This document shows positions 28,913 through 48,007 of a stretch of 64,000 nt of DNA, in pieces. Position numbers and translations under genes: made by a program. Source of the DNA: an uncultured archaeon (lineage in GTDB: Archaea; Nanobdellota; Nanobdellia; Pacearchaeales; GW2011-AR1); assembly GCA_963845205.1 (NCBI GenBank), contig CAWJRC010000002.1, positions 152,825 through 216,824 on the forward strand. The letters are read 5' to 3'. The notes under the pieces are model-generated. The model saw only the letters and a program-made list of their open reading frames with translations. It made no database searches and was not told the origin of the DNA. Within the stretch, counting starts at the first letter, position 1; the number at the start of each line of letters is the position of its first letter.

Positions 28913-29944
28913 TCAAAATTGATAATCTGGGAAAGTCTGTAGTCCATACCGCGTTTTTATTTCTTGATACTGAAGATATTGGATGAAATTTATTGTTCCC
29001 TCTTTTTGTGAGGCTTCCCTGATCTCTTGAAGTGTTTTGGCATCTCTATATTCAACTAAATCATTTCCCAACGAAATTCCGGAGGAAATATTTACTATAT
29101 AAGGAGCTGAGGTAAGACTTATTCCTCCGACATATTCATTTTTGTCATCAGTGATTATTGATGGTCCTGTTGTTTCAACAAAACAATAGCTTGAATTTGG
29201 GATACTTTCTGTTGGTGGGCATTTTATTCCAACTGCTGCGTGATTTTCTGGAGCATAATAAAGGAAAGCTGCATCATATCCTATTTTCTGGAGCAAAAAT
29301 ACTAGCAGTTCTGATTTTTCGTTACAATCTCCTTCCATGTCATAAAGAACTTCATAAGGATATCTTTGATAGGGAATCTCTATATCCCCTATATTAACCG
29401 TTTTAGTTGAATTTCCAAAAGGAATATTCTGAACTATGCTAATTGCAATTCTGGCCTGATCTTCTTTTGTTGTAGCGGAATTTTCTATAGCAATAACGAG
29501 GGGCAATAAGAACTCTCTTTGTTCTTTATCATCTATTGTTGCCTGTTCAAATTTTAGAAGAGTCGGATCATCGCTTACATTGATATAACGGGGCAACATT
29601 GAAGTATAATTGTATAATCCTTGATAGACTGTGAAATTAATTTCCCCCTCTTTACCCATAAAAGTATAATTTAAAGTGATATTTTTGGGAGCAATTTGAT
29701 AAACAGATAAACATAGATCATTACTGATTTCTGAAGAATTTAAACAACCACATACCGATGCCTTTTCAATTAAAGTACCGTTTATACAAAGGTAAGGTTT
29801 TATATTTGAACATCCGCCTTCAATTGTTCCATCATTGCAATTGGGAGTGTTATTATTAAAGAAAATGAAATAAGCAGGAATTAAAAGAACTAAAACCAAA
29901 ATTATATAGACTACTATTTTTTCAATCTGCCCCTCTTTAATCAT
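28913..29944 (-). CDS. Membrane-anchored transglutaminase-like protein, Cys-rich stalk, many N-x-S/T sequons
   Basis: N-terminal TM segment, a Cys cluster (CNDGTIEGGCSNIKPYLCINGT..CGC), and a core GDCNEKSELLVFLLQKIGYDAAF...NHAAVGIKC. tttttata box 29 nt upstream. Confidence 0.55.
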   Translation of the reverse strand: MIKEGQIEKIVVYIILVLVLLIPAYFIFFNNNTPNCNDGTIEGGCSNIKPYLCINGTLIEKASVCGCLNSSEISNDLCLSVYQIAPKNITLNYTFMGKEGEINFTVYQGLYNYTSMLPRYINVSDDPTLLKFEQATIDDKEQREFLLPLVIAIENSATTKEDQARIAISIVQNIPFGNSTKTVNIGDIEIPYQRYPYEVLYDMEGDCNEKSELLVFLLQKIGYDAAFLYYAPENHAAVGIKCPPTESIPNSSYCFVETTGPSIITDDKNEYVGGISLTSAPYIVNISSGISLGNDLVEYRDAKTLQEIREASQKEGTINFIQYLQYQEIKTRYGLQTFPDYQF

Positions 29945-35973: not shown

Positions 35974-36080
35974 TTTTCACCTCGAATTTTTAATTAATTA
36001 TGTTAAGTAAATGTTGTTTATAAATTTTTGTATAAAAAAGTTGTATAACTTTACAAAAATGCATTTTTATCGACGGAGAT

Positions 36081-37742
36081 TTAACTTATTATTTTTCCAG
36101 CTTTTTCAAATACAATTTTTCCGTCAATTAATTCTCTAAAAATATTTTTCAATTCAGAAATTTTTACTCTTATCTGTTTTTTAGTAGTTCTATCCCTTAT
36201 TGTAACATCTCCTTTTTTCAGAGATTCCTCGTCGACAGTTATGCAAAATGGAGTCCCTGTTTCATCATTTCTTGCATATCTTCTTCCAATACTTCCTGAT
36301 TCATCATAAAGAACATTCCATTCTGTTTTAAGATCATCAAAAATGTTCATACATATTTTTTCAAAATCATCCTTTTTGACAATAGGGAATATGGCTGCTT
36401 TTATTGGAGCAAGTTTAGGATGCAAGTTTAGGACGATATTTTCTCTTTTATTGTCATAATTGTAAGCATCAAACATGAATACTAAAAAGGCTCTTCCTAA
36501 TCCAAGGCTAGGCTCGCAGACAACATGCGGCAAAAATTTTTCTTTTGTCTGCTCATCAAAAAGTTTCAAATCTTTTCCGGAATATTTTTCATGCTGCCTT
36601 AAATCATAATCTGTTCTGTTAGCCATTCCTTCAAGTTCCTTCCATCCAAAAGGAAAGTTATATTCCAAATCCCACGTATCAAGTGCATAATGACTTTTCT
36701 CGTCGGAAACATGCTGTCTTGCTCTAAATTTTGAAGGATTTGCTCCTAGATTTATAAACCATAAAAATTCTTGTTCAAGCCAGTAAGCATGCCAATCTGT
36801 TTTTATTATCCCTTTTTCATAAGCCTTTTTCAAGGTCATTTTCTTAGGCTCCTCTTTTTTTTCCTGCATTTCTGCAGAATAGATTAAAATTTCAGTTTCG
36901 CCTATTTTGTAAGGACATGTTTCATTAGGCTTTATGAAATATTCAATTTCCATTTGCTCAAATTCTCTTACTCTGAATAAAAAATCACGTGGGGCAATTT
37001 CGTTTCTGAAAGATTTTCCAATTTGTGCAATTCCAAAAGGGAGTTTCATTCTTGCGTTCTCATAAACAAATTTAAAATTCGCAAAAATTAATTGAGCTGT
37101 TTCAGGTCTAAGATAAGATTTTATAGAATTTTCTTGTATTGGTCCAACTTGTGTTGTAAACATAGGATTAAATTCCCCTTTATTCTCAAATTCTCCTCCA
37201 CATTTTTCACATTTTGCTTTTCCAACTTCATATTTGTCTATTTTTGTTTTATTTCCGCATTTCTTGCAGACTACTGCGATATCAAGAAAATTTGCAACAT
37301 GTCCTGAAGCTTCCCAAATTTTTGGATTTGTGATTATGCTCCCGTCAATCCCTTTAATGTCTTTTCTTTGCCAGACATGAAATTTCCACCATTCTTTTTT
37401 AAGATTATTATTTAATTCAACTCCTAACGGCCCTAAATCCCAAAAACCTGCAAACCCCCCATATATTTCTGCAGAAGGATAAACAAATCCCTTTCTCTTG
37501 CAAAAAGTTGCCATTTCTTCAATTGAGATATTTGTTTCCTCAATTTCTTTTTTCTTTCCTGGAACTCCTATTTTTTCTTTTTTTTTCATCTTAATTATTT
37601 CCTTCGCTTTTTTTTCAGCTTCTTTTTTGGTTTTTCCTAGATAAGCAATACTTTTGGTTTTTACCTTTCCTTCTATTCTCTTATTTTCATTGAGATAATA
37701 ATAATCTTTTCCATTTATTGTCTTTTTTACAATAAAAGCCAT
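36081..37742 (-). CDS. glyS: Glycyl-tRNA synthetase (alpha2 archaeal/eukaryotic type) with an appended N-terminal basic module
   Basis: The core starts at about residue 72 (EEMATFCKRKGFVYPSAEIYGGFAGFWDLGPLG). Class II motifs and a C-terminal anticodon-binding domain are present. Confidence 0.93.
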   Translation of the reverse strand: MAFIVKKTINGKDYYYLNENKRIEGKVKTKSIAYLGKTKKEAEKKAKEIIKMKKKEKIGVPGKKKEIEETNISIEEMATFCKRKGFVYPSAEIYGGFAGFWDLGPLGVELNNNLKKEWWKFHVWQRKDIKGIDGSIITNPKIWEASGHVANFLDIAVVCKKCGNKTKIDKYEVGKAKCEKCGGEFENKGEFNPMFTTQVGPIQENSIKSYLRPETAQLIFANFKFVYENARMKLPFGIAQIGKSFRNEIAPRDFLFRVREFEQMEIEYFIKPNETCPYKIGETEILIYSAEMQEKKEEPKKMTLKKAYEKGIIKTDWHAYWLEQEFLWFINLGANPSKFRARQHVSDEKSHYALDTWDLEYNFPFGWKELEGMANRTDYDLRQHEKYSGKDLKLFDEQTKEKFLPHVVCEPSLGLGRAFLVFMFDAYNYDNKRENIVLNLHPKLAPIKAAIFPIVKKDDFEKICMNIFDDLKTEWNVLYDESGSIGRRYARNDETGTPFCITVDEESLKKGDVTIRDRTTKKQIRVKISELKNIFRELIDGKIVFEKAGKIIS

Positions 37743-37818
37743 TTATATGTTAGGCACTACTTCCTATTTAAATTTTTTTAAAAAATTTTCTAGAAGTTTA
37801 AAAGAGATTCATCGTGAA

Positions 37819-38229
37819 TTACATCTTGCTTCGCACACTATGCTTTGCACCACAAGCCATGCAATGAATGAATGCTAGTCTGTCCTCTTTTGATAATTCT
37901 GTGTCTGGTTTTCCACATTCCCTACACAAAACAAATTCTTTGGTATACTGTTCTATTTTTTGATTTATCTTTTCACTGGGAACTTTCATATTCAAAACTA
38001 ATCTGTCCCCCTCTCTCTGACCCGAAACTGCCAATTCTCTAAGTATAAATTTCTGGAAATGTTCGGGGTTTCTTCTTATGTGAGAAGCAATTTGGAAGAA
38101 ATTTGTTAATATAGTTTTCTTTCCTTCAAAATGCCCTTCTATTTTAGGAATCTCAAATCTTTCTCCCGAAGTTTCTGGCTTTTTGACTTTGCTGTATGCT
38201 TCATTAAGCAATTGTTCATAAGTTTCCAT
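37819..38229 (-). CDS. eif2b: Translation initiation factor aIF-2 beta
   Basis: YEQLLNEAYSKV, RFEIPK.. and the C-terminal Zn ribbon CRECGKPDT...CMACGA. Confidence 0.9.
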   Translation of the reverse strand: METYEQLLNEAYSKVKKPETSGERFEIPKIEGHFEGKKTILTNFFQIASHIRRNPEHFQKFILRELAVSGQREGDRLVLNMKVPSEKINQKIEQYTKEFVLCRECGKPDTELSKEDRLAFIHCMACGAKHSVRSKM

Positions 38230-38250
38230 GAATTAAATTCTAAAGACAAG

Positions 38251-38258
38251 TTTATAAA
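38251..38258. promoter_or_regulatory. Palindromic TATA box (TTTATAAA) shared by divergent genes
   Basis: Exactly 29 nt to minus ATG 38229 and 29 nt to plus ATG 38280. Confidence 0.55.
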
Positions 38259-38279
38259 TCTTTTAACGATTATTTTTTT

Positions 38280-38540
38280 ATGAGGCATCCGACAAAGGTT
38301 GAGAAATATGAAGGTTCACTTCTTGAACTCGCAAAAGATATAGGAAATTTGAATTATTATCAATTAGCTCATTTTTTAGATTATCTAGCGATAGATTTAG
38401 AACAACAGTCAAAAGCAGATAAAAAAAGAGGAAGAAAACAATTGTCGGGCAAATTAGAAGAAACATCTAAGGAAATTTTTCAGGCAAGAGATGAAATGAT
38501 CTCTATTGCGAATCTTTGCGAAAAACATAAAGAAGAGTAA
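38280..38540 (+). CDS. Hypothetical helical protein
   Basis: ORF track plus a promoter box at -29. No family recognised. Confidence 0.45.
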   Translation: MRHPTKVEKYEGSLLELAKDIGNLNYYQLAHFLDYLAIDLEQQSKADKKRGRKQLSGKLEETSKEIFQARDEMISIANLCEKHKEE

Positions 38541-38560
38541 TCTTAACCTATTTTTTTGGT

Positions 38561-38755
38561 TTAGATTAAATAATAAGGAATAATTGAATAGTCTAAGGGT
38601 TTAGAAGTGGAAGTAAACCTTTCCGGTATTATTCTATAATTTTTTGGAGCTGAAGTTGAAGTTAAATCTTCGCGCAATATTTCAGGAAATGGTTTTAACC
38701 CATTTGATTTGGGGATAATTGTACCTTTCAAATTTTTAATATCTTCAATTGACAT
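38561..38755 (-). CDS. Hypothetical 64-aa protein with an internal tandem repeat
   Basis: Starts 1 nt after the RPA-like gene stop. TSTSAPKNYRIIP and TSTSKPLDYSIIP are repeated. Confidence 0.35.
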   Translation of the reverse strand: MSIEDIKNLKGTIIPKSNGLKPFPEILREDLTSTSAPKNYRIIPERFTSTSKPLDYSIIPYYLI

Positions 38756-38756
38756 T

Positions 38757-39383
38757 TTACCCCAGCCACCTTATTTTTCCCGGGCGAGGTTCAAATATTA
38801 TTCCTTCTTCAAGAAGTTTTTTTATTTCTTGATTTATCATTTCGGGGGAAATTTCTCTTAAGTTCATGATAATAACATCAATTTCAATTCCACCATCTTT
38901 CTCTGCATTTTTTATTATATCAAGAATCTTATCTTTTACAGCAATTATCTGCTCCCTCGCAAGGGGTTTTACATTTTGATTTTTTTCTTTTTCAATTTCA
39001 AGTTTTCTTAAGAGAAGATATCTTATATCCTCTTCCCTCATAATTTCGGGAGATATGTAAGTCTCATTATTAAAATTTCTTAAATTCCCTATGACTAAAA
39101 TAGTCTGTCCCTGGACTATATTCTTAAATTTTTCAACTTCATCTCCAAAGCATTTTATCTTTATCTGCCCGCTTCCATCATCAATCGTAAAAAAAATATA
39201 TTTCCTTTCTCCTGAACTTTCATATTTGTCGGTTACATTTCCTATGATATTTACTCTTATTATCTTTTTATCTCCTAATTCTAAAAGAGAGAATCTTTCA
39301 TTATCAAAAATCGGTTTTCCTAGAAGAACTTCACCAATCCTGAATTTATATGCAATATTTCTTTTAAATTGCCCTTCAGCCAT
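38757..39383 (-). CDS. OB-fold plus winged-helix protein (RPA32/Rpa2-like ssDNA-binding subunit)
   Basis: OB-like core (VNIIGNVTDKYE..YIFFTIDDGSGQIKIKCFGD...ILVIGNLR) with a C-terminal wH-like segment. Immediately downstream of mcm. Confidence 0.55.
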   Translation of the reverse strand: MAEGQFKRNIAYKFRIGEVLLGKPIFDNERFSLLELGDKKIIRVNIIGNVTDKYESSGERKYIFFTIDDGSGQIKIKCFGDEVEKFKNIVQGQTILVIGNLRNFNNETYISPEIMREEDIRYLLLRKLEIEKEKNQNVKPLAREQIIAVKDKILDIIKNAEKDGGIEIDVIIMNLREISPEMINQEIKKLLEEGIIFEPRPGKIRWLG

Positions 39384-39434
39384 AACATGAAAAATTAAAA
39401 CGGATTTTTAAAGATTTAGACATTCGAATAATTG

Positions 39435-41513
39435 TTAATTTGTCCTGCTGACAAATCCACGACGGGGGCTAAAAATATCCCCTGAACTGCTTAATTTATT
39501 TATTGATTCATCGATTTCTTCTTTACTCATTTTTCCTTCAAGCTCTTTTTCAATTTCTTCAAGGGGAATCAATTTTCCAATTCTGCTCTCTAGATCAATT
39601 ATTATATCTCTTACAGTTAAGATTTTCCCTCTTTGAGAACTTGAGAACTTTCCAGAAATTCTGTCTATGTCAAAAGTTTTTGATTCATAATCATATCCAA
39701 CTTGCATTAGATAGTATTTCATAATCTCAATCGCAATTCTTGCATCTTCTCTAGTAACTTTTTTGCTTAACTTAACTTTAGCGGATGCTTCTGCCATTCT
39801 AATCAATGCCTGTAACTGCCTAGCAGAAATAGGAATAGGACGCAAACCACTTTCAACTGCAACAGGCTTATTTCTTAAATCAATATAAAATTTTTTTATT
39901 TCTTCAACTGCTTCATCCGTTAATTCTGGCTTGATTCTTTGTTTTGCATAAGCTACATATTTTCTAAATAATTCACGTGGGATAAACATCCCTTCCCCTT
40001 CTTTTCTGTGTTCATTTAAAACATGCTCTGCAATCATCTCATCTTTTTCCCTGTTTGGAACATCTCTTAAAGTAAAAATAATATCAAAACGGTTTATTAG
40101 TGTAGGAGGCAAATCGATCTGCTGTGCAATCGGCTGGCTGGGGTCGAATCTTCCAAATTTTGGATTTGCTGCTGCTAAAACACTTGTTTCTGCTCTTAAT
40201 GTTGCTTGAACATTTGCTTTGCTAACAGTTATTGTCTGTTGCTCCATTGCTTCATGCATTGCACTTCTATCATTAGGATCCATTTTTTCTAATTCATCGA
40301 CACAAACAAGACCTTTATTTGCAAGAACCATTGCACCTGCTTCAAGACTCCAACCTCTAAGATATTCATCTCTGACAACTGTTGCTGTAAGTCCTGCGCC
40401 TGATGCAGATTTTCCAACTACATATCTCCCCTTTGGGGAAATATTTGCCATAAAACCTAATGTTACCGATTTTGCAACTCCTGGATCTCCTATCAGCAAG
40501 ATATGAATGTCCCCCCTGCTTTTTTGGCCATCTTTATGAACTTTCTGGACTCCGCTAAATAACTGCAGGACAAGAGATTTTTTTATTTCTTCATAACCCC
40601 AGATACTCGGAGTTATGCTTCGTGCGAGGTTCTCAAAAACCATTGGATCTTCTGCAAGCTCAAGAATCTGTCTTTCATCTTCATCACTGATATCCAGTTC
40701 TTCAAAAGTCTCTTCCATGGGGATTACATTATTTGCTTCAAGAGCAAGTTCAAATCTTGTAGATAATCCTCCTGTCTGCAAAGGAATCGGGACTTCTTTT
40801 AAAATTCCTATTACTTTTATCCTGCTTCCAGGAGTTGTTTTCTCTTCCATTTTAGGTTCAACTAAGTCTTCTTTTACAAAGACATTAATCCTTTTTGGCT
40901 GTTCTCCTCCTGACAAAGATTCGGGTGCTTCTTCAACTACAAGGCGTTGAGTGTCAACCATTTCTTTACTTATCAATCTGAAGCCGCCTCTTCTTCCACA
41001 TGAGCATCTAGGTGGTTCGCGAAATTTTCTTTCAATTTGAAGAACAGACATTAATGTCCCGCAACTTGGGCATTCAAATTTTGCATTAACTACTTGAGGA
41101 CGGACGTCTGAAGCTTGTCTTATAATTCCCTCAATTACAATCATTTCATTGAGATTTTTTGAACGGATATTTCTAACTTTTATTTCCTGACCTTTTGGGA
41201 CATTCATTAAACGGACGCGTGCATTTTTTATCAGACCCGATTCTTCTACAGCTAATTCAATAATTCTTAAGGTGTCTTCTGGATCTGAAAGAAGTTCCTC
41301 CGGCAGTTTGTTTGAAAACTCTGTAAGTTTCAGAAAATCAAGACTTACTACATTTGAACCTTTTCTCATTGACTTTCCTAAGTCTTTCTTGTAGAAATCA
41401 AAGAATTTTTTTGCTTCAATTATTAATTCCTCTGTTTTCCCCTTTTCGGATTTCTTTTCTACAGCTCCTGAAGAATTATAAGGCTCCTCATCGAATTGTT
41501 CACTCTCATCCAT
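39435..41513 (-). CDS. mcm: MCM replicative helicase
   Basis: Walker A IHILLIGDPGVAKS, Walker B CVDELEKM, arginine finger SRFD-like NRFDIIF, Zn motif CPSCG...CSCG. Confidence 0.95.
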   Translation of the reverse strand: MDESEQFDEEPYNSSGAVEKKSEKGKTEELIIEAKKFFDFYKKDLGKSMRKGSNVVSLDFLKLTEFSNKLPEELLSDPEDTLRIIELAVEESGLIKNARVRLMNVPKGQEIKVRNIRSKNLNEMIVIEGIIRQASDVRPQVVNAKFECPSCGTLMSVLQIERKFREPPRCSCGRRGGFRLISKEMVDTQRLVVEEAPESLSGGEQPKRINVFVKEDLVEPKMEEKTTPGSRIKVIGILKEVPIPLQTGGLSTRFELALEANNVIPMEETFEELDISDEDERQILELAEDPMVFENLARSITPSIWGYEEIKKSLVLQLFSGVQKVHKDGQKSRGDIHILLIGDPGVAKSVTLGFMANISPKGRYVVGKSASGAGLTATVVRDEYLRGWSLEAGAMVLANKGLVCVDELEKMDPNDRSAMHEAMEQQTITVSKANVQATLRAETSVLAAANPKFGRFDPSQPIAQQIDLPPTLINRFDIIFTLRDVPNREKDEMIAEHVLNEHRKEGEGMFIPRELFRKYVAYAKQRIKPELTDEAVEEIKKFYIDLRNKPVAVESGLRPIPISARQLQALIRMAEASAKVKLSKKVTREDARIAIEIMKYYLMQVGYDYESKTFDIDRISGKFSSSQRGKILTVRDIIIDLESRIGKLIPLEEIEKELEGKMSKEEIDESINKLSSSGDIFSPRRGFVSRTN

Positions 41514-41567
41514 AATTAGAAAACTAAGGGATTATTTATATTAATTTCTATGAGAAAATAGATAAGA

Positions 41568-42020
41568 CTAATCTACTGCATAACCAATAAAAGTACAATT
41601 GAACAAAAAAGCTGTATTACAAGGATAACCTGAAGCATGTTGAGAACATTGGCAACCCCCTACGGGATTAGATCCGCTAATAATACAATTTGAAGGTCCT
41701 CCACTATCATTTCTGACTTCAATCTGTCCATTACATCTAGTTTGGGTAGGACAAGTTGGATCTGTTTCTACAGGGCATTGATAAACCCAGATATCTCCCA
41801 ATTTTTGTGAAGTAGGGCTACAAGTTAAAGTATTTCCGTTCCAACTTACTGCTTCACCAGCAGTACAGCCTGAAGGAACAGAAATCTCATTGAATAAATG
41901 TCCCGGATTTGGAGCAACTCCAGGAGTAAGAGCATATGTGCTAAAAGCAATTGCTGAAACAATCCCTATAATTACAAATAAATAAAGCAGTTTATTTGTT
42001 TTTGTTTTATTTTTTTCCAT
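41568..42020 (-). CDS. Secreted Cys-rich protein, paralogue 3 of a tandem triad (150 aa, 10 Cys)
   Basis: MEKNK.. basic N-terminus, a hydrophobic core ending STYA/LT, then PNPGH..ISVPSGCTAGEAVSWNGNTLTC. C-terminal CTFIGY. Confidence 0.6.
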   Translation of the reverse strand: MEKNKTKTNKLLYLFVIIGIVSAIAFSTYALTPGVAPNPGHLFNEISVPSGCTAGEAVSWNGNTLTCSPTSQKLGDIWVYQCPVETDPTCPTQTRCNGQIEVRNDSGGPSNCIISGSNPVGGCQCSQHASGYPCNTAFLFNCTFIGYAVD

Positions 42021-42021
42021 T

Positions 42022-42432
42022 TTAACTTGTTAGATATCCGAAAGATGTACATGATAATTTAGCACAGTTAGATCCATGATAACATTGAAGATTATTAATA
42101 CTTGAATAATAAAAAAGATGAGTTCCTCCATCACAATAGATTTTGTCATAAGAAATAAGTGAAAATGGAAAGTTGCATTGAGAATAATCTGCTTGACTAG
42201 GACAAAGTCCAATTATAATTGAGCTTAATTGTGGATTATTCTCACAAACTATATTTGTCCCATTCCATATTAAAATTTGGTTAGCTGCGCATCCTGAAGG
42301 CGCACCAATATCATTTAAACTATGTCTGTAAGAGGTGACAGCATAAACTCCTGCGCTTGCAATTACTAATATTCCTAGCATTATTAATACATAAAGCAAT
42401 TTGCTTGAAATCTCTATTTTATTTTTTTCCAT
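42022..42432 (-). CDS. Secreted Cys-rich protein, paralogue 2 (136 aa, 8 Cys)
   Basis: MEKNK.. signal-like N-terminus ending GVYA/VT, then IGAPSGCAANQILIWNGTNIVC. C-terminal CTSFGY. 1-nt gaps to both neighbours. Confidence 0.6.
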   Translation of the reverse strand: MEKNKIEISSKLLYVLIMLGILVIASAGVYAVTSYRHSLNDIGAPSGCAANQILIWNGTNIVCENNPQLSSIIIGLCPSQADYSQCNFPFSLISYDKIYCDGGTHLFYYSSINNLQCYHGSNCAKLSCTSFGYLTS

Positions 42433-42433
42433 T

Positions 42434-42756
42434 TTAATTTACTAAATGTCCTGCCAATAAGCAGCCTCCGTAAGCCGTAATCGTATCTGTTGATTGAGTT
42501 ATTTGAGAACCATCAGGCCCGACGCAATTGTAAATAGGCTGATTTTCTACAGCGGAATTACTGCAGATAAAATCTGTTCCATTTGAAGTTATTGCCTGTC
42601 CTGATGTGCATGGAGCCGGAGGAGCGATTTGAGATGTAGGATGCCCCGGATTTGGAGTTCCGCCCGCTGTTACTGCATAAACTCCTAAAGCCATTAAGGA
42701 AAGGATTATTATTGTTGCAAAAAATAAAACCAGCGATTTTTTAAATTAATTCTCAT
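42434..42756 (-). pseudogene. Paralogue 1 of the triad, reading frame broken at a homopolymer
   Basis: ATG 42756 (attaatat box at -29) reads MRINLKNRWFYFLQQ* and stops. One extra A in the A6 run (plus-strand T6, 42737..42742) would give MRINLKKSLVLFFATIIILSLMALGVYA/VTAGGTPNPGH..APCTSGQAITSNGTDFIC. Confidence 0.55.
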
Positions 42757-42810
42757 TACCCCTTTTTTTTACTCTTCATATTAATCTTAAGTTTAAGGTT
42801 TTTTTAAATG

Positions 42811-43365
42811 TTATCCCTTATAGTTCTTCAATGCTTCTTTGACATTTTTAAGAAGTTGTTTCATGCTATCTTCAAGTTGTTCTTTGTTTTTTGTTCCTGT
42901 ACATACTAGTTTACCATTACTAAAAAGAAGAAATGTTGCATTTGGTTCTATTAATTTGTAAACTAAACCCGGAAATTGTTCTGGTTCATACTCTGTATTC
43001 TGCATCTCCAAAGCTAAAAAATTTAAATTTAATTTTAAATTGATTGTTCCTGATGCGACTATGTTCTGAACTGTTATCTTCGGTTTGGTTGTTATTTTTA
43101 CATTTATTTTTTTTAATTGCTTTATTACCGCATTTATGACTTCCCTTACCTGCGTTGTTGATTTTGTTCCTGTACATACAAGATTTCCAGATGAGAAAAC
43201 AAGAACTGCAGATTTTGGTTCTTTAACTCTTAATACTAAACCTGGAAAAGTTTCAGGATTGTATTCTGTATTTGGCTGTGTTCTTGCTAATTTTGTAAGA
43301 GGAACAGGTTTTCCTAGAGAAGCAGTCGCAACTATATTCTGTATCTTGTAATTGCTATCTGACAT
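42811..43365 (-). CDS. tbp: TATA-box binding protein
   Basis: Two direct repeats with QNIVA..L..L...FPGLV.R...P....L.FSSGK(N)LVCTG.K. Confidence 0.93.
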   Translation of the reverse strand: MSDSNYKIQNIVATASLGKPVPLTKLARTQPNTEYNPETFPGLVLRVKEPKSAVLVFSSGNLVCTGTKSTTQVREVINAVIKQLKKINVKITTKPKITVQNIVASGTINLKLNLNFLALEMQNTEYEPEQFPGLVYKLIEPNATFLLFSNGKLVCTGTKNKEQLEDSMKQLLKNVKEALKNYKG

Positions 43366-43386
43366 GTTTATAAATGGAAAAAATGC

Positions 43387-43394
43387 TTTATAAA
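43387..43394 (-). promoter_or_regulatory. TATA box (palindromic TTTATAAA) of the tbp gene
   Basis: 29 nt from tbp ATG 43365. A second identical box lies at 43367..43374. Confidence 0.5.
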
Positions 43395-43398
43395 GGCT

Positions 43399-43929
43399 TT
43401 GTCGATATCTATTCCTAATCCTTCAGCTTTATTTAGATTAATTTTTTATACTAAAAAAACAAAAAAGATTGTGGTCTCCAAAAGAAAAATTAAGAAGGAA
43501 ATCCTTGATTATCTATTAATTCCCACAAATTGGGAAAAACAAAGAAGAAAAAGGGTTTTAGAGGAGCTAAAAAGAAGAGATATTAAAAATATAATTATCC
43601 TAAATGGGTTTGATAGCGAAGATGATATTCTTTATTTGGGGAAAAAATTGAAGGGGAGAGAAAGAATTGGTTTTGTAACTTTCCCTTTGCATTATTTAGA
43701 ATATAAGGAAATAATAAAAAAGGCGATTAAGGAAGGAAAATTTCCAAATAAAATTAAGATAGAAAATATAAAGACTAAGCAAACCACAAAACAATTTATT
43801 TATGGAGTTTTTGGTTTATTAGATGAAAAACTAAAAAAAAGAAAATTAGATTATTTTCAAAACAGACTTGAGAACCCCCTTATATTTACTATCAGAAAAT
43901 TTTTTAGAAATTGTTTAATAAATAATTAA
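43399..43929 (+). CDS. Hypothetical basic protein (non-ATG start)
   Basis: ORF track. There is no internal Met, so it must start at TTG 43399 or a downstream GTG. No confident family. Confidence 0.35.
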   Translation: MSISIPNPSALFRLIFYTKKTKKIVVSKRKIKKEILDYLLIPTNWEKQRRKRVLEELKRRDIKNIIILNGFDSEDDILYLGKKLKGRERIGFVTFPLHYLEYKEIIKKAIKEGKFPNKIKIENIKTKQTTKQFIYGVFGLLDEKLKKRKLDYFQNRLENPLIFTIRKFFRNCLINN

Positions 43930-43930
43930 T

Positions 43931-45637
43931 TTATCCATACTTCCAATTTCTTTTTTGATTTTCAAATTCTTTTTCTATCTCTTTGATAGTAGTTATATCT
44001 GACGGAGAACGATCAGGACGTAAAGCAGTAAATCTTGGAAATCTTAATGCAAATCCAGAAGAATATGTCGGTGATTTTTGAATTTCCTGATAGGTTATAG
44101 AAATTACTATCTTAGGTTTTATCTTCACATTTTTTCCCTTTTCTTCGGTTATTAACGGCTTTATCTTTTCTGTTAATTCTTCAAAAGAAACTCCTTCTTC
44201 CTTTTTTTCTTTGAATCCTGTTCCAACTTTTCCTATTTCTAGGAATTTATCTTTATCGCGGCATGAAATTATGAAACTTGAAATCCAGCCATGACGTTTC
44301 CCTGTTCCATATTCGCCTCCGGTTATAACTAAATCAAAATCTCTTTCTTCTGGCTTGATCTTTAGCATATGCCCCACCCTACTTCCGGGATTATATTTAG
44401 CGTCCAGATTTTTCATCATTACTCCTTCCTGATTATCCCTTAATGCCTGTCGATAAAACTCTTCAGCCTTTTTTTCATTATCAGTTATTATTTGTTTTGA
44501 GTGGATTATTTTATACGGATGACTTTCAACAATTTTTCTTATAAGTTCTGTTCTTTTTCTGAAAGGTTCATCGAGCATAGATTTTCCATTATAATATAAT
44601 ATGTCAAAAACATTTACTTCTACTGGAAGTTCGTCCTGAAGTTTTCCAATATCATATTTTCTTTTTATTCTTTGGCTTATGCTTTGAAATTGTTTGTACT
44701 CTTTTGTTTTTTTATCAAACCCTACTGCTTCTGAATCGAGAATAGCTGAATTTGCATTTACATATTTTTTAACATAATCAACTACTTCTGGAAATTGTTT
44801 TGTAACATTTTCCAACCTTCTTGTAAACAGCACAACATTATTTCCTTTTTTGTGAATTACTAATCTAAATCCATCATATTTGTATTCTATTGCGCACGGC
44901 TTTCCAACTTTTTCAAAACCTTCCTTTACATTTTTTGCTTTTTGTGCTAGCATTACTTTTATGGGTTTTCCAATTTCAAGTTTTACTTTTCCTAAATCTT
45001 TTATTTTTCCTTTTTTCACAATTTCAAAAACTGCGGCAATATCATTTGTTTTATCTATCGCATCTTGGATCTCTTTTGTATAACCTTGGTCTTTGAAAAA
45101 AGCTTTGGACATCGCATCTCTTATTGTGCTTTCCTGTATTCCAATCCTTAAGTCTCCGATTAATGTTCTAGCAAGATAAAGAGACTCTACAGGAGTTGCA
45201 GAAGTAAGCAGTTCTGTTATCAAGGCCATCTTCTTGTCTATTGTTCCTTTGCCTTCTAAGGCTGGAAGTTTTCTCAAATTTTCCAAAACCTTTTCTGTTG
45301 TTAGAACATGGCTTTGCAATGTGGACTGTTTTTTATTTTTTGTTAATTTCTCCGCTACTTTCCCCAAATCACCTAAGGATTTCCATTCATGAACAACTTT
45401 TTCTTTTTCTGTTCCTGTAGCCTTTGAGATAGCTTTTATCACAAGCTGGCTGCTTATACCTATCTTTCTTTCATCATATTCAGCATAAATATTACCCAAA
45501 AGGAGATAGAGAACTTCTGTATCTGATTCAGAAAGTTCTTTCAAAAATTTTGATAATATATCAGTCTTTTCAAGTCTTTTTGTTGTTTCAGAAAGAGACT
45601 CATATAATTCTGCAAGTTTTAGATATCTCATAATCAC
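43931..45637 (-). CDS. lig: ATP-dependent DNA ligase
   Basis: Adenylation motif CAIEYKYDGFRL, plus EGVMMK and LKIK motifs and an OB domain. The track start is GTG 45637; ATG 45631 is an alternative. Confidence 0.93.
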   Translation of the reverse strand: MIMRYLKLAELYESLSETTKRLEKTDILSKFLKELSESDTEVLYLLLGNIYAEYDERKIGISSQLVIKAISKATGTEKEKVVHEWKSLGDLGKVAEKLTKNKKQSTLQSHVLTTEKVLENLRKLPALEGKGTIDKKMALITELLTSATPVESLYLARTLIGDLRIGIQESTIRDAMSKAFFKDQGYTKEIQDAIDKTNDIAAVFEIVKKGKIKDLGKVKLEIGKPIKVMLAQKAKNVKEGFEKVGKPCAIEYKYDGFRLVIHKKGNNVVLFTRRLENVTKQFPEVVDYVKKYVNANSAILDSEAVGFDKKTKEYKQFQSISQRIKRKYDIGKLQDELPVEVNVFDILYYNGKSMLDEPFRKRTELIRKIVESHPYKIIHSKQIITDNEKKAEEFYRQALRDNQEGVMMKNLDAKYNPGSRVGHMLKIKPEERDFDLVITGGEYGTGKRHGWISSFIISCRDKDKFLEIGKVGTGFKEKKEEGVSFEELTEKIKPLITEEKGKNVKIKPKIVISITYQEIQKSPTYSSGFALRFPRFTALRPDRSPSDITTIKEIEKEFENQKRNWKYG

Positions 45638-45674
45638 CTTAAAGATAATTAGAAATCCAAGTATTTAACTTTAA

Positions 45675-45956
45675 TTACTGGATTAATTCTTTTACTTCTT
45701 TTTTTGCATTTTCTATTTCTTTAGCTTGTTCTTTATCCAACTGTAAAAGCAAGGTTTCAAATTCACCCATATGTGTTTTTTCTTCTTTCGCGATGTCCAT
45801 TAGAACTTTTTTTATATTCTTATTTTTAGCCTTTGAAGCAAGCTGTTCATAAAGACTAACTGCATCAAGTTCCGCAATCATACCCAATCTTATAATCTCT
45901 TTGTCAATTTCTCCTTCAGGAACTTTATCAAGATTTATTGGAGATTCTGATAACAT
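45675..45956 (-). CDS. Small ferritin-like protein (EncFtn/rubrerythrin-like four-helix type)
   Basis: AELDAVSLYEQL ... IAKEEKTHMGEF matches the E...E..H metal-ligand pattern of encapsulated-ferritin-like proteins. 93 aa. Confidence 0.55.
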   Translation of the reverse strand: MLSESPINLDKVPEGEIDKEIIRLGMIAELDAVSLYEQLASKAKNKNIKKVLMDIAKEEKTHMGEFETLLLQLDKEQAKEIENAKKEVKELIQ

Positions 45957-45996
45957 ATTCTATATAATTAATTAAGATTTAAATAACTTTTGCAGA

Positions 45997-46509
45997 TTAT
46001 CTTCCGAATCTTGCTTTTGTTGCAGCAGAAGTCAAACCTCTAGCTGCTCTTTTTTTGTTATTAGATCTACAAATCCAGTTTATTGTTTTATCGTTTTTTA
46101 TTTCTGGTGCACTTGGATTTACTAGAATAACTTCATAGAAATAATTCATTCCATCTTTTCCGATTTGATAAGAGTTTAATACTTCAAGATTTTCGTATTT
46201 TTTTGCAGTTCTTTGTTCTGCAATCCATTTATAATTCATTTGAAGATTTTTTCTTGTATGCATTCTTTTACCTCTTCTTCCTTTGTTTGGACGAGGTCTT
46301 TTATGCCCTCCTCTTTTTATTCTCACTCTTACCACGACGAATCCTTTTTTGTCTTTATAACCAAGAGTTCTTGCTCTGTCCAATCTTAAGGGCTTATCCA
46401 CTTTGGTAAAAACAGAACTATGACGCCATTCGGTCATTCTTTCTCTTAATGTTTTTTCATCGGGCTTCTTCCAAGCCTGCTTCATATAATGATAAAATCC
46501 ATTAGCCAT
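45997..46509 (-). CDS. rpl15e: Ribosomal protein eL15 (L15e)
   Basis: YHYMKQAWKKP... LGYKDKKGFVVVRVRIKRGG..RPRPNKGRR. Confidence 0.9.
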   Translation of the reverse strand: MANGFYHYMKQAWKKPDEKTLRERMTEWRHSSVFTKVDKPLRLDRARTLGYKDKKGFVVVRVRIKRGGHKRPRPNKGRRGKRMHTRKNLQMNYKWIAEQRTAKKYENLEVLNSYQIGKDGMNYFYEVILVNPSAPEIKNDKTINWICRSNNKKRAARGLTSAATKARFGR

Positions 46510-46549
46510 AAATTATTGAGATAAAAATGGTTTTTAAAGGTTATGAAAA

Positions 46550-46623
46550 TGAGACTGCAAGGATTTGAACCTTGGACCCCTGCCTTATCAGAGCAGTGCT
46601 CTACCAAGCTGAGCTACAGCCTC
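46550..46623 (-). tRNA. tRNA-Ile (anticodon GAT)
   Basis: Acceptor GAGGCTG/CAGTCTC, D arm GCTC-AGCTTGGTA-GAGC, anticodon arm CTGCT-CTGATAA-GGCAG, T loop TTCAAAT. 74 nt. Confidence 0.88.
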
Positions 46624-46671
46624 ATACATAGAAAGTAGTGAGAAAGTTATTTAAAAGTTTTTGCAATTCAT

Positions 46672-47334
46672 TTATTTGCCAAATCTTCTTTCTCTGCTTC
46701 TGAACTCTTCTATCGCAGATTTTAAATCCTGTTTCGTGAATTCCGGCCACATTTTGTCAAGAAAAATCCATTCGCTGTAGACTGATTGCCAAGGCAGAAA
46801 ATTGCTTGTTCTTTTTTCTCCGCCTGTTCTTATTATAAAGTCGGGATCATCAGAAAGCCACAAACATCCTTGAAAATTTTTCTCATTTATTTCTTTACCT
46901 TCTTTTATCAATTTCTTAATTGCTGAAATTATCTCACTTCTGCCACTGTAAGCCAAAGCAAAATTTACTATATAATCATTATAATTTTTTGTTTTATTCT
47001 CTATTCTATCCATCATTTTCTGAATATTTTTATTTAGAAGTTTTCTTTCTCCGATAAATCTAATCTTTATTTTATTCTTATCAATTCTCTTGTCATTTTC
47101 AAATTTTTTGAAAAATCTTCCGAAAAGCTTCATGAGAAAATTCACTTCTTCTTTTGAGCGATTAAAATTTTCTATTGAAAAACAATATAATGTAATCTCT
47201 TTTATATTCAGTTCTTTAGCCCAGTCCAGAAGTTCTTCTATCTTTTTAGCTCCTAGCTCATGCCCGTCCCAGGGCTTTTTATCAATGCTTTTTGCAAATC
47301 TTCTGTTTCCATCTAGGATAATTCCGATATGCAT
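46672..47334 (-). CDS. uppS: cis-Prenyltransferase (undecaprenyl/di-trans,poly-cis-polyprenyl diphosphate synthase)
   Basis: HIGIILDGNRRFAK, TLYCFSIENFNR and RTGGEKRTSNFLPWQ motifs. Confidence 0.9.
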   Translation of the reverse strand: MHIGIILDGNRRFAKSIDKKPWDGHELGAKKIEELLDWAKELNIKEITLYCFSIENFNRSKEEVNFLMKLFGRFFKKFENDKRIDKNKIKIRFIGERKLLNKNIQKMMDRIENKTKNYNDYIVNFALAYSGRSEIISAIKKLIKEGKEINEKNFQGCLWLSDDPDFIIRTGGEKRTSNFLPWQSVYSEWIFLDKMWPEFTKQDLKSAIEEFRSRERRFGK

Positions 47335-47335
47335 T

Positions 47336-48007
47336 TTAATTTTTAATATCTAATTCAAGAATTAATTTTCCATTGGAAAGATTATATTTTTTTATTGGAA
47401 GATTGATGGGGATTATCTTTGCATACGCTTTGTTTTTTGAAATGGCCTTTATCTCTATGCTATTCTCCAATTTAATTATAGAAATATCCTCAGTTGATTT
47501 AACTCCCGGCATTTCAATTTCATAAACTACTTTATTTGAAAGTCTTCTTATGTTTGTTTTTGGTTCTTCTCTTTTGAGACTTGAAAAATTCTTTATTTGG
47601 CTATCTGTAAAAAAATTCTGTTTAATTGGCTCTATTTTTTCTTTAGGAATTTTCTGATTGTTTCCCATTTGGGTTACTTTTATTTTAGGCGGACCATCTC
47701 CAAATGTAGATATACTTATACTTATTCCATCTTTTTTCATATCATTTTGTTTCCTAATCTCATTGAAATTATTGTTCATCATTTCTTTATCCAGTTCTTT
47801 ACTAAGATTTTTTATCAAAGAATTGAATAATGTATTGAATCCTAAGGGAAGTTTTACGTTATTTAGAGGCATAAAATCATTTTTACCCAACATACCCCAA
47901 TCTTCATTTTGCCCTTCTTCTAAAATTCTATTTCCGCAATAAGGGCAGAAATCATATTTTTCTTCTATCTTTTTACCACATTTTCCACATTTTTTCTTCT
48001 TAAACAT
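47336..48007 (-). CDS. Zn-ribbon plus Hsp20/alpha-crystallin-like domain protein
   Basis: CGKCG..CPYCG at the N-terminus. The C-terminal VYEIEMPGVKSTEDISIIKLENSIEIKA...NGKLILEL resembles an ACD. Start moved to ATG 48007 because the track ORF runs into tRNA-Gly. Confidence 0.5.
   Translation of the reverse strand: MFKKKKCGKCGKKIEEKYDFCPYCGNRILEEGQNEDWGMLGKNDFMPLNNVKLPLGFNTLFNSLIKNLSKELDKEMMNNNFNEIRKQNDMKKDGISISISTFGDGPPKIKVTQMGNNQKIPKEKIEPIKQNFFTDSQIKNFSSLKREEPKTNIRRLSNKVVYEIEMPGVKSTEDISIIKLENSIEIKAISKNKAYAKIIPINLPIKKYNLSNGKLILELDIKN

Follow-up and report, generated by a model that had tools for sequence, protein, structure and literature searches.

Introduction

Proteins that join a constant N-terminal part to polymorphic C-terminal binding tips, encoded in tandem and evolving fast, are already known among tail fibres, the PilV shufflon and surface adhesins. 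Here we compare with these systems three small genes, gA, gB and gC, carried by an uncultured archaeon of the Pacearchaeales on a 64,000-nucleotide stretch of contig CAWJRC010000002.1 (the window, to which all positions refer). The genes lie side by side on the minus strand between tbp and mcm, which encode the TATA-binding protein and the MCM helicase. We put at roughly 55% the probability that they encode exported surface-binding or recognition proteins, each made of a signal, a neck and a swappable head, that diversify in a fixed slot.

Tail fibres follow a modular design in which a constant shaft bears a variable receptor-binding tip, and one class ends in a Peptidase_S74 module (PF13884), an intramolecular chaperone domain. 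PilV, the shufflon tip adhesin of the IncI1 plasmid R64 (PF04917), belongs to the type IV pilins and has a prepilin signal; behind a constant N-terminal part it carries alternative C-terminal tips, which determine binding specificity and are switched by Rci-mediated DNA inversion. The YSIRK-G/S and KxYKxGKxW signal peptides of Gram-positive bacteria keep a motif within the n/h region of a Sec signal across diverse surface proteins, which implies a role beyond plain targeting.

A survey of DPANN archaea (Castelle et al. 2021, PMC8204110) describes Pacearchaeota-specific modules of families without predicted function, and predicts that many lineage-specific DPANN families are membrane-bound or extracellular. 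The family reported here fits this general description; the survey's passages on these families contain neither its architecture, nor its neck motif, nor the tbp-mcm slot. We found no description of the signal/neck family in the literature.

Results

The three proteins belong to a large family that is defined by its N-terminal part. Searches of Pfam (cut-off E<=10), NCBIfam and PHROG with gA, gB and gC gave nothing beyond noise on the hydrophobic segment, and a word-indexed protein search with gA alone found two relatives only. An exhaustive profile search with the first 72 alignment columns was needed, and returned 1654 representative clusters at E<=1e-3 and 477 at E<=1e-10. The module occupies residues ~5-77 in almost all of the matches listed, in proteins of 70-600 amino acids (aa). 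Against the family hidden Markov model gA, gB and gC score 2e-24, 6e-23 and 1e-21, and each has the invariant His and both Cys of the module. The exact gA protein is also on record in NCBI/ENA/Logan, on a contig of 374,879 bp.

The family consensus reads MKKKRGxxIxIN(L/F)SNRWLYT(L/F)IxLGILAIIGVGVYA up to the predicted cleavage site and LTPGVAPNPGHLISExAPPSxCxxxQxLx(W/F)xGTxWxC after it, and the alignment is lost beyond that point. Information content is 2.5-2.7 bits per column in signal and neck and 0.5 bits past the neck; His41 is invariant, and both Cys, N9, R10, Y13 and A30 are at least 90% conserved, the N-terminal values being upper bounds. Family members (numbered P below, and their loci L) may occur several times in one genome, and a 581-kb contig carries three family genes at two separate loci (L031, L047).

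An earlier note, made from the letters of the window, had described a minus-strand triad of secreted, Cys-rich paralogues between mcm and tbp, set apart by single nucleotides. Much of this description holds. Pfam identifies both flanking genes, and the triad consists of two intact open reading frames (ORFs) and a third frame ending at 42434, with TAA-A-ATG at both junctions. The proteins are paralogues by pairwise BLASTP (E = 4e-16 for gA-gB, 7e-15 and 2e-8 for the other pairs), and the block that they were said to share lies at 41820-41867, 42244-42291 and 42563-42610 and nowhere else in the window. PNPGH precedes it in two of the three, gA and gC; Cys counts are even, with every Cys in the mature part; and the C-T-x-(F/I)-G-Y ends of gA and gB are present, to which we add the related end of gC (Table 1). 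That the block belongs to no named family is borne out by zero matches in the three databases searched. The first gene of the triad has to be redrawn, as 42434..42756 spans 323 nt that form no ORF and its ATG is out of frame.

Could this similarity be an artefact of composition, or the ORFs not be genes at all? The genome is low in GC, and the heads are low-complexity and align significantly neither with one another nor with a subgroup profile. The pairwise similarity is nonetheless well above chance, hundreds of homologues share the invariant His and the two Cys, synteny is conserved and the same genes are called in independent assemblies. We regard an artefact as almost certainly the wrong explanation.

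The spacing between the genes is a single nucleotide between a stop and the next ATG, and their translation is probably coupled. Each junction is a copy of a 35-nt direct repeat (86% identity, 412 nt apart, found by repeat search), which points to a head-to-tail duplication of a unit of ~412 nt. Upstream of the triad, TTTAAAAAAA could be an archaeal TATA box serving all three genes. No other long imperfect repeat with the triad is found in 36000-48000, which speaks against a target of a diversity-generating retroelement; reverse transcriptase was not searched for window-wide.

Table 1. Features of the triad and of the borders of its slot
Feature	Positions	Strand	Description
gA	41568..42020	-	intact ORF, 150 aa, 10 Cys, C-terminus NCTFIGYAVD
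gA predicted signal peptide	41931-42020	-	aa 1-30
gA neck	41820-41930	-	aa 31-67
gA Cys-rich head	41571-41819	-	aa 68-150
gB	42022..42432	-	intact ORF, 136 aa, 8 Cys, C-terminus SCTSFGYLTS
gB predicted signal peptide	42340-42432	-	aa 1-31
gB neck up to second Cys	42244-42339	-	SYRH in PNPGH position, His retained
gB head	42025-42243	-	
gC main reading frame	42434..42745	-	open from stop 42746-42748; 4 Cys; C-terminus GCLLAGHLVN
gC remainder of predicted signal peptide	down to 42674	-	
gC neck	42563-42673	-	PNPGH at 42641-42652
gC short head	42437-42562	-	
gC out-of-frame 5' piece	42709..42756	-	n-region motif KNRWFY, matches consensus (I/L)N(F/L)SNRWLYT
gC putative frameshift site	42718..42724	-	heptamer T TTT TTG, X XXY YYZ in phase with ATG 42756
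gB/gA junction, repeat copy 1	42005..42039	-	codons G-Y-L-T-S, stop, 1 base, ATG GAA AAA AAT AAA
gC/gB junction, repeat copy 2	42417..42451	-	codons G-H-L-V-N, stop, 1 base, ATG GAA AAA AAT AAA
Candidate TATA box	42799..42808	-	TTTAAAAAAA; directly after tbp stop, 43-52 nt upstream of gC ATG
TBP	42811..43365	-	PF00352 6.7e-58; upstream border of slot
MCM helicase	39435..41513	-	PF00493 7e-90, with MCM_OB and MCM_lid; downstream border of slot

The reading frame of gC is broken within its signal region. The ATG at 42756 encodes MRINLKNRWFYFLQQ and runs into a stop at 42711-42709. In the main frame the first ATG, GTG or TTG is at 42694, and a start there would give no signal peptide; similarity to the signal regions of gA and gB extends upstream of this ATG. 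One additional T in the T6 run at 42719-42724 (T7), or a -1 shift, yields a 107-aa protein with a family-typical N-terminus. The same T6 is found in an independent assembly of run ERR10755942 (L001). The heptamer has the phase of a classical -1 slippery site, as programmed frameshifting would need, but the RNA beyond it shows no unusual structure and folds no better than shuffles (z = +0.78), and slippage or mutation is the simpler explanation. We read the break as a frameshift mutation or a slippage-prone tract, with programmed frameshifting no more than a formal possibility.

The N-termini look like Sec signals, as the earlier note had proposed. Judged by sequence rules, they have the tripartite n-h-c layout, and the predicted signal peptidase I site is flanked as expected, by residues that are small and uncharged at -3 and -1 and by a residue other than Pro at +1. 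In each window protein a basic n-region leads into a hydrophobic core of 14-15 residues; two of the signals contain a helix-breaking Gly, and all three end in V/T-Y-A: gA runs MEKNKTKTNK, LLYLFVIIGIVSAIA and FSTYA before LT, gB ends SAGVYA before VT and gC, once repaired, LGVYA before VT. Across the family the core is ~14 residues long with Gly at -6/-4 and V-Y-A at -3 to -1; A stands at -1 and V, I or T at -3 in all 122 sequences compared, and L at +1 in 98 of them. Export and signal cleavage of the triad proteins are inferred from these features. A lipoprotein signal (no Cys before residue 48-52) and a Tat signal (no RR in the n-regions) do not fit gA, gB or gC.

Conservation of the n/h motif is unusual for a disposable signal, so the cell may retain this segment as an anchor or recognize it through a dedicated pathway. 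In this respect it resembles the YSIRK-G/S and KxYKxGKxW signals, to which it is unrelated in sequence and which are Gram-positive, the present family being archaeal. We know of no dedicated pathway for the family's conserved signal motif.

A conserved, hydrophobic, helical N-terminus, a variable C-terminus and tandem paralogues would also be expected if these proteins were major and minor subunits of a surface filament or lattice, with an N-terminal region that drives assembly as in pilins and tandem copies that serve as alternative subunits. A shared C-terminal end of the GYLVN type in 29 of the 219 members, P0018 among them, is what a strand in subunit contacts would give, and the head of P0066 has a match (phmmer 7e-9; Pfam 3.6e-10) to PilV of R64, near GGGFYMSDGSWVR in the constant region of that adhesin. 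We consider such a filament unlikely. gA, gB and gC show no class III prepilin signal, with no Gly or Ala at the n/h border or at the -1 position of such a signal and no match to PF04021 at E<=10; [KR]G occurs within the first 12 residues of 66 of 138 relatives, ~10 residues ahead of the hydrophobic core. The annotated neighbours include no assembly ATPase, platform protein or prepilin peptidase, and head sizes of 68-603 aa are too unequal for one lattice.

The likeness to PilV is one of design, a constant N-terminal part with alternative tips. The triad differs from PilV in having no prepilin signal, invertase or inverted repeats, and varies by duplication and replacement of whole genes. Shufflon_N is not the identity of the shared module, because its match traces to the head of P0066 alone and the neck profile does not match PilV.

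The neck that follows the signal is ~40 residues long and consists of PNPGH, with the invariant His, and a disulfide-stapled β-hairpin, C-x3-Q-x-L-x-W-x-G-x2-W-x-C. The AlphaFold2 (AF2) model of gA has a transmembrane or signal helix at 9-29 (predicted local distance difference test, pLDDT, >90) and a hairpin at 56-60/65-69 (pLDDT ~89). After GH the modelled neck makes a one-turn helix and passes into the confidently predicted hairpin, which bears both Cys.

A second neck variant follows the same signal peptide in L005-L012, L040, L055, L056 and the family alignments. It reads YGTSxPxxFGHSxxEI... or AATYSPSGAGHPYTEISTC..., sometimes continued by LCxGxDCxTSW, and retains the His and a Cys pair.

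The hairpin recurs outside the family. Giant fibre-like proteins of 1187-5298 aa (P0004-P0007, P0027, P0054, P0115) contain 10-32 tandem hairpins of the form C..GQ.L.WNG..W.C, for which neither Pfam nor NCBIfam has a model. Some of them carry DUF2341 and S74 modules, and some are bacterial (Ignavibacteria, Myxococcales). This splits the question of lineage restriction in two: all named source records of the signal/neck module are metagenome-assembled genomes of Pacearchaeota, Woesearchaeota or Nanoarchaeota, so that among named records it is found in DPANN only, whereas the Cys block alone is also the repeat unit of giant bacterial proteins. The MCM and TBP of Candidatus Pacearchaeota archaeon RBG_19FT_COMBO_34_9 share 86% and 97% identity with the window's own.

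The neck hairpin, with the motif (A/S)GQ-x-(L/V)-x-(W/Y)-(N/D)-G-x-x-(W/Y)-x-C, is also weakly like the core hairpin TAGQLVTYNGKTYKC of the carbohydrate-binding module CBM5/12 (PF02839; chitinase A1 ChBD, PDB 1ED7). A repeat protein found with the profile, P0101, matches CBM_5_12 at 5e-11. The likeness covers only ~20 residues, and the disulfide staple is not a CBM5/12 trait. The neck profile and one giant repeat protein, compared with PDB sequences, hit 1ED7 alone at a non-significant E = 0.92, and the window proteins have no CBM5/12 match in Pfam at E<=10. We do not assign them to that family.

The heads beyond the neck are the variable part. Small Cys-rich forms are common (128 of 219 members have at most 200 aa and at least 6 Cys), and the Cys count is even in 206 of the 219. 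Recognizable Pfam domains among 138 representatives are Peptidase_S74 (four, all above the gathering score), Gly_rich_2 (three), Big_7 (three), TSP1, H_lectin, PT-HINT and Shufflon_N; a match to the tail-collar-like Gp10_C is weak and sub-threshold. The tail-fibre stalk motif GNVGIG occurs in 21 of 219 members. The window heads and the GYLVN subgroup have in common a terminal G-(Y/H)-(L/A)-(V/T)-x.

The positional orthologue of the triad genes, P0018 (L007, 4001-4459), has a head that AF2 models as an all-β, Cys-rich domain with pLDDT 85-92. A Foldseek search of this model against PDB and BFVD gave a best E of 0.48 and a TM-score never above 0.21. On the strength of the model, this head may be a new fold.

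Several relatives look like tail fibres, which raises the question of whether the triad is a remnant of a virus or prophage, that is, captured receptor-binding genes with no cellular role. P0036, P0057 and the slot gene of L011 combine the GNVGIG stalk with an S74-type C-terminus, P0057 matches tail-fibre PHROGs at 1e-38, and giant proteins ending in S74 (P0004, P0007) repeat the neck hairpin 16-19 times. A few of the non-significant Foldseek matches of P0018 are phage tail proteins. Set against this, gA, gB and gC have by Pfam no S74, collar or fibre motif, begin with a Sec-type signal and lie in a block of cellular core genes with no phage gene nearby, a slot that is syntenic across genomes in the tbp-mcm-ligase-L15e block. 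Neither the N-terminal module, its neck included, nor the window proteins match any PHROG, and 2.9 million viral contigs (IMG/VR) contain no relative. A viral origin of this kind is very improbable.

Small, Cys-rich, apparently exported proteins that are tandem and polymorphic at the C-terminus could also be secreted toxins or antimicrobial peptides, in which a common N-terminal trafficking module would carry polymorphic, Cys-rich toxic parts to competing cells or to hosts, much as polymorphic toxin systems or defensin-like peptides do. One relative, P0038, carries a pre-toxin HINT domain (PF07591, 7.7e-8). This explanation seems doubtful to us for the triad. Gaps of 1 nt with no interleaved ORF leave no room for immunity genes, no toxin domain is recognizable in the 138 representatives or by Pfam in gA, gB and gC, and the heads that can be identified (fibre, collar, lectin, Ig, TSP1) are binding modules. 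Constant placement in a core replication and transcription block is also atypical for toxin cassettes. A polymorphic toxin system in the strict sense combines a C-terminal toxin domain with an adjacent immunity gene, and the triad has neither.

The heads, and only they, are depleted two- to threefold in N-glycosylation sequons. In the heads of 209 representatives, with expectations taken from shuffles, NxS occurs 58 times against 167 expected (0.35x, z = -9.4) and NxT 74 times against 156 (0.47x, z = -7.0). Control motifs stay close to expectation (SxN, TxN, QxS/T and GxS/T at 0.95-1.04x, DxS/T and NxA/G at 1.17x), and depletion is seen in Cys-rich as well as in Cys-poor heads. Housekeeping proteins give no such signal: 48 ORFs of the window contain 94 sequons, with 86 expected. 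The simplest reading is that, on the external side of the membrane, the heads would come into contact with an N-oligosaccharyltransferase and be selected to stay free of glycans, as a binding surface might be. Together with the even Cys counts, this head-specific depletion supports the suggestion in the earlier note that the domains are extracellular and stabilized by disulfides.

The place of the triad is itself conserved. A family gene lies between or beside tbp and mcm in L007/L019, L011, L022 and L057, and partly in L016, L024, L051, L055 and L056, with one to three copies in or near the slot. The flanks are 78-90% (MCM) and 91-98% (TBP) identical to those of the window, and the slot proteins 27-40%. 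Heads in the slot are of the GYLVN-type, Cys-rich kind in L007, L022, L024 and L056, an S74 tail fibre, read from sequence, in L011, an ISITW-type β domain in L051 and L055, and of other kinds in L016 and L057. The tbp-mcm interval is conserved as a slot and hypervariable in what it contains, with heads replaced outright.

This pattern of near-identical flanks around very different occupants, along with the DPANN-only source names, fits the proposal that the genes form a fast-evolving surface or host-interaction family. Two related points need correcting: the housekeeping setting is a conserved synteny and not a peculiarity of one genome, and tandem arrays, which the note had asked about, are frequent without being constant, at ~12 of 56 loci (for example three copies in L002 and L020 and four in L018). 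Variation is also visible between strains. In L060 (ERR11523656), 99% identical over 907 bp of window 41740-42646, the only differences are two substitutions (N->D and S->N) and the insertion of one codon, each of which alters the protein and falls in the mature part of gB; this confinement is suggestive, the three sites being too few for a test.

The neighbourhood block of the triad comprises TBP, MCM, DNA ligase, L15e, an RPA-like OB protein and aIF2β. A 176-aa ORF with a TTG start (43399..43929, +) and no Pfam match lies between DNA ligase and tbp on the opposite strand; in L007 tbp and the family gene are separated instead by an ORF of 117 aa that is unrelated to it, so the edges of the slot vary too. 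Another ORF without a Pfam match, of 86-87 aa (MRHPTKVEKYEGS..., 38280..38540, +), lies between the RPA-like gene and aIF2β and is kept in a related Pacearchaeota contig (L007, 7474..7737, -).

In another lineage (L006, L010) the genes next to the family gene encode methionyl-tRNA synthetase and a zinc-ribbon-like protein of 224 aa (MFKKxKCxxCG...). L15e is close by, and these surroundings may be a second conserved neighbourhood. Elsewhere in the window, a 343-aa ORF without a Pfam match (28913..29944, -) has an N-terminal hydrophobic segment, 9 Cys and 11 N-x-S/T sequons. Its product is probably exported and, unlike the triad's family, is rich in sequons.

Discussion

The genes gA, gB and gC are co-oriented paralogues and probably co-translated. 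We propose that their products are exported, acquire disulfides by oxidation and are either presented at the cell surface or set free. The Sec-type signal, with (I/L)N(F/L)SNRWLYT, a hydrophobic core and GVGVYA, would be cut by signal peptidase I or kept as a membrane anchor. The conserved middle part is the neck, LTPGVAPNPGH with its one-turn helix and the single-disulfide β-hairpin. The head is interchangeable; in the window it is small, rich in Cys and closed by G-(Y/H)-(L/A)-(V/T)-x, and its surface would serve to bind or recognize a substrate, a host cell or some other cell. In the slot the family evolves by tandem duplication, fast divergence and replacement of whole heads.

Several observations weigh against this proposal. 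The heads of gA, gB and gC score 2.2, -0.6 and 5.2 bits against the GYLVN-head profile, values equalled by 63, 402 and 21 of 500 shuffles; the window heads are not above shuffles, and their link to the GYLVN subgroup thus rests on the terminal pentapeptide and synteny. The gA head has no confident AF2 model (pLDDT <50). To take sequon depletion as a sign of exposure requires an AglB-type oligosaccharyltransferase, and the window is without one: a search for AglB among the large ORFs of the 64 kb brought up only tRNA synthetases, eRF1 and a GT2. Conservation at the N-terminus gives upper bounds because hits were chosen by a profile or pattern covering that part. The long h-region and the conserved n-region would fit an uncleaved anchor equally well. 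Additionally, gC may be a dead gene.

A more elaborate version of the proposal is speculative, and we hold it to be improbable as a whole. In it, signal and neck would be the loading module of a surface display specific to DPANN, and the interchangeable, glycan-free, possibly trimeric heads would serve ultra-small episymbiotic archaea as cellular tail fibres for host recognition. The invariant His would lie along the axis of the oligomer, cassettes would be exchanged at the tbp-mcm slot as a dedicated hot spot, and T TTT TTG in gC would be an on/off switch, working by phase variation or by -1 frameshifting.

In the papers and database models consulted, we found no counterpart of the signal/neck module, its restriction to DPANN, the tbp-mcm slot or the sequon-poor heads. 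The Cys-rich head fold modelled for P0018 is apparently new as well. With no neighbour in PDB or BFVD, this head is a target for structure determination. Head-specific sequon depletion hints that the binding surface is exposed yet kept without glycans, and may help to find similar proteins in other archaea.

For Pacearchaeota and Woesearchaeota, abundant and uncultured archaea whose genomes are very small, the family bears on the question of how they recognize and attach to partners. It is large, typical of these lineages and present in multiple copies, and thus offers a searchable set of candidate recognition determinants. With the signal and neck motif as a query, the whole repertoire can be retrieved from any DPANN genome.

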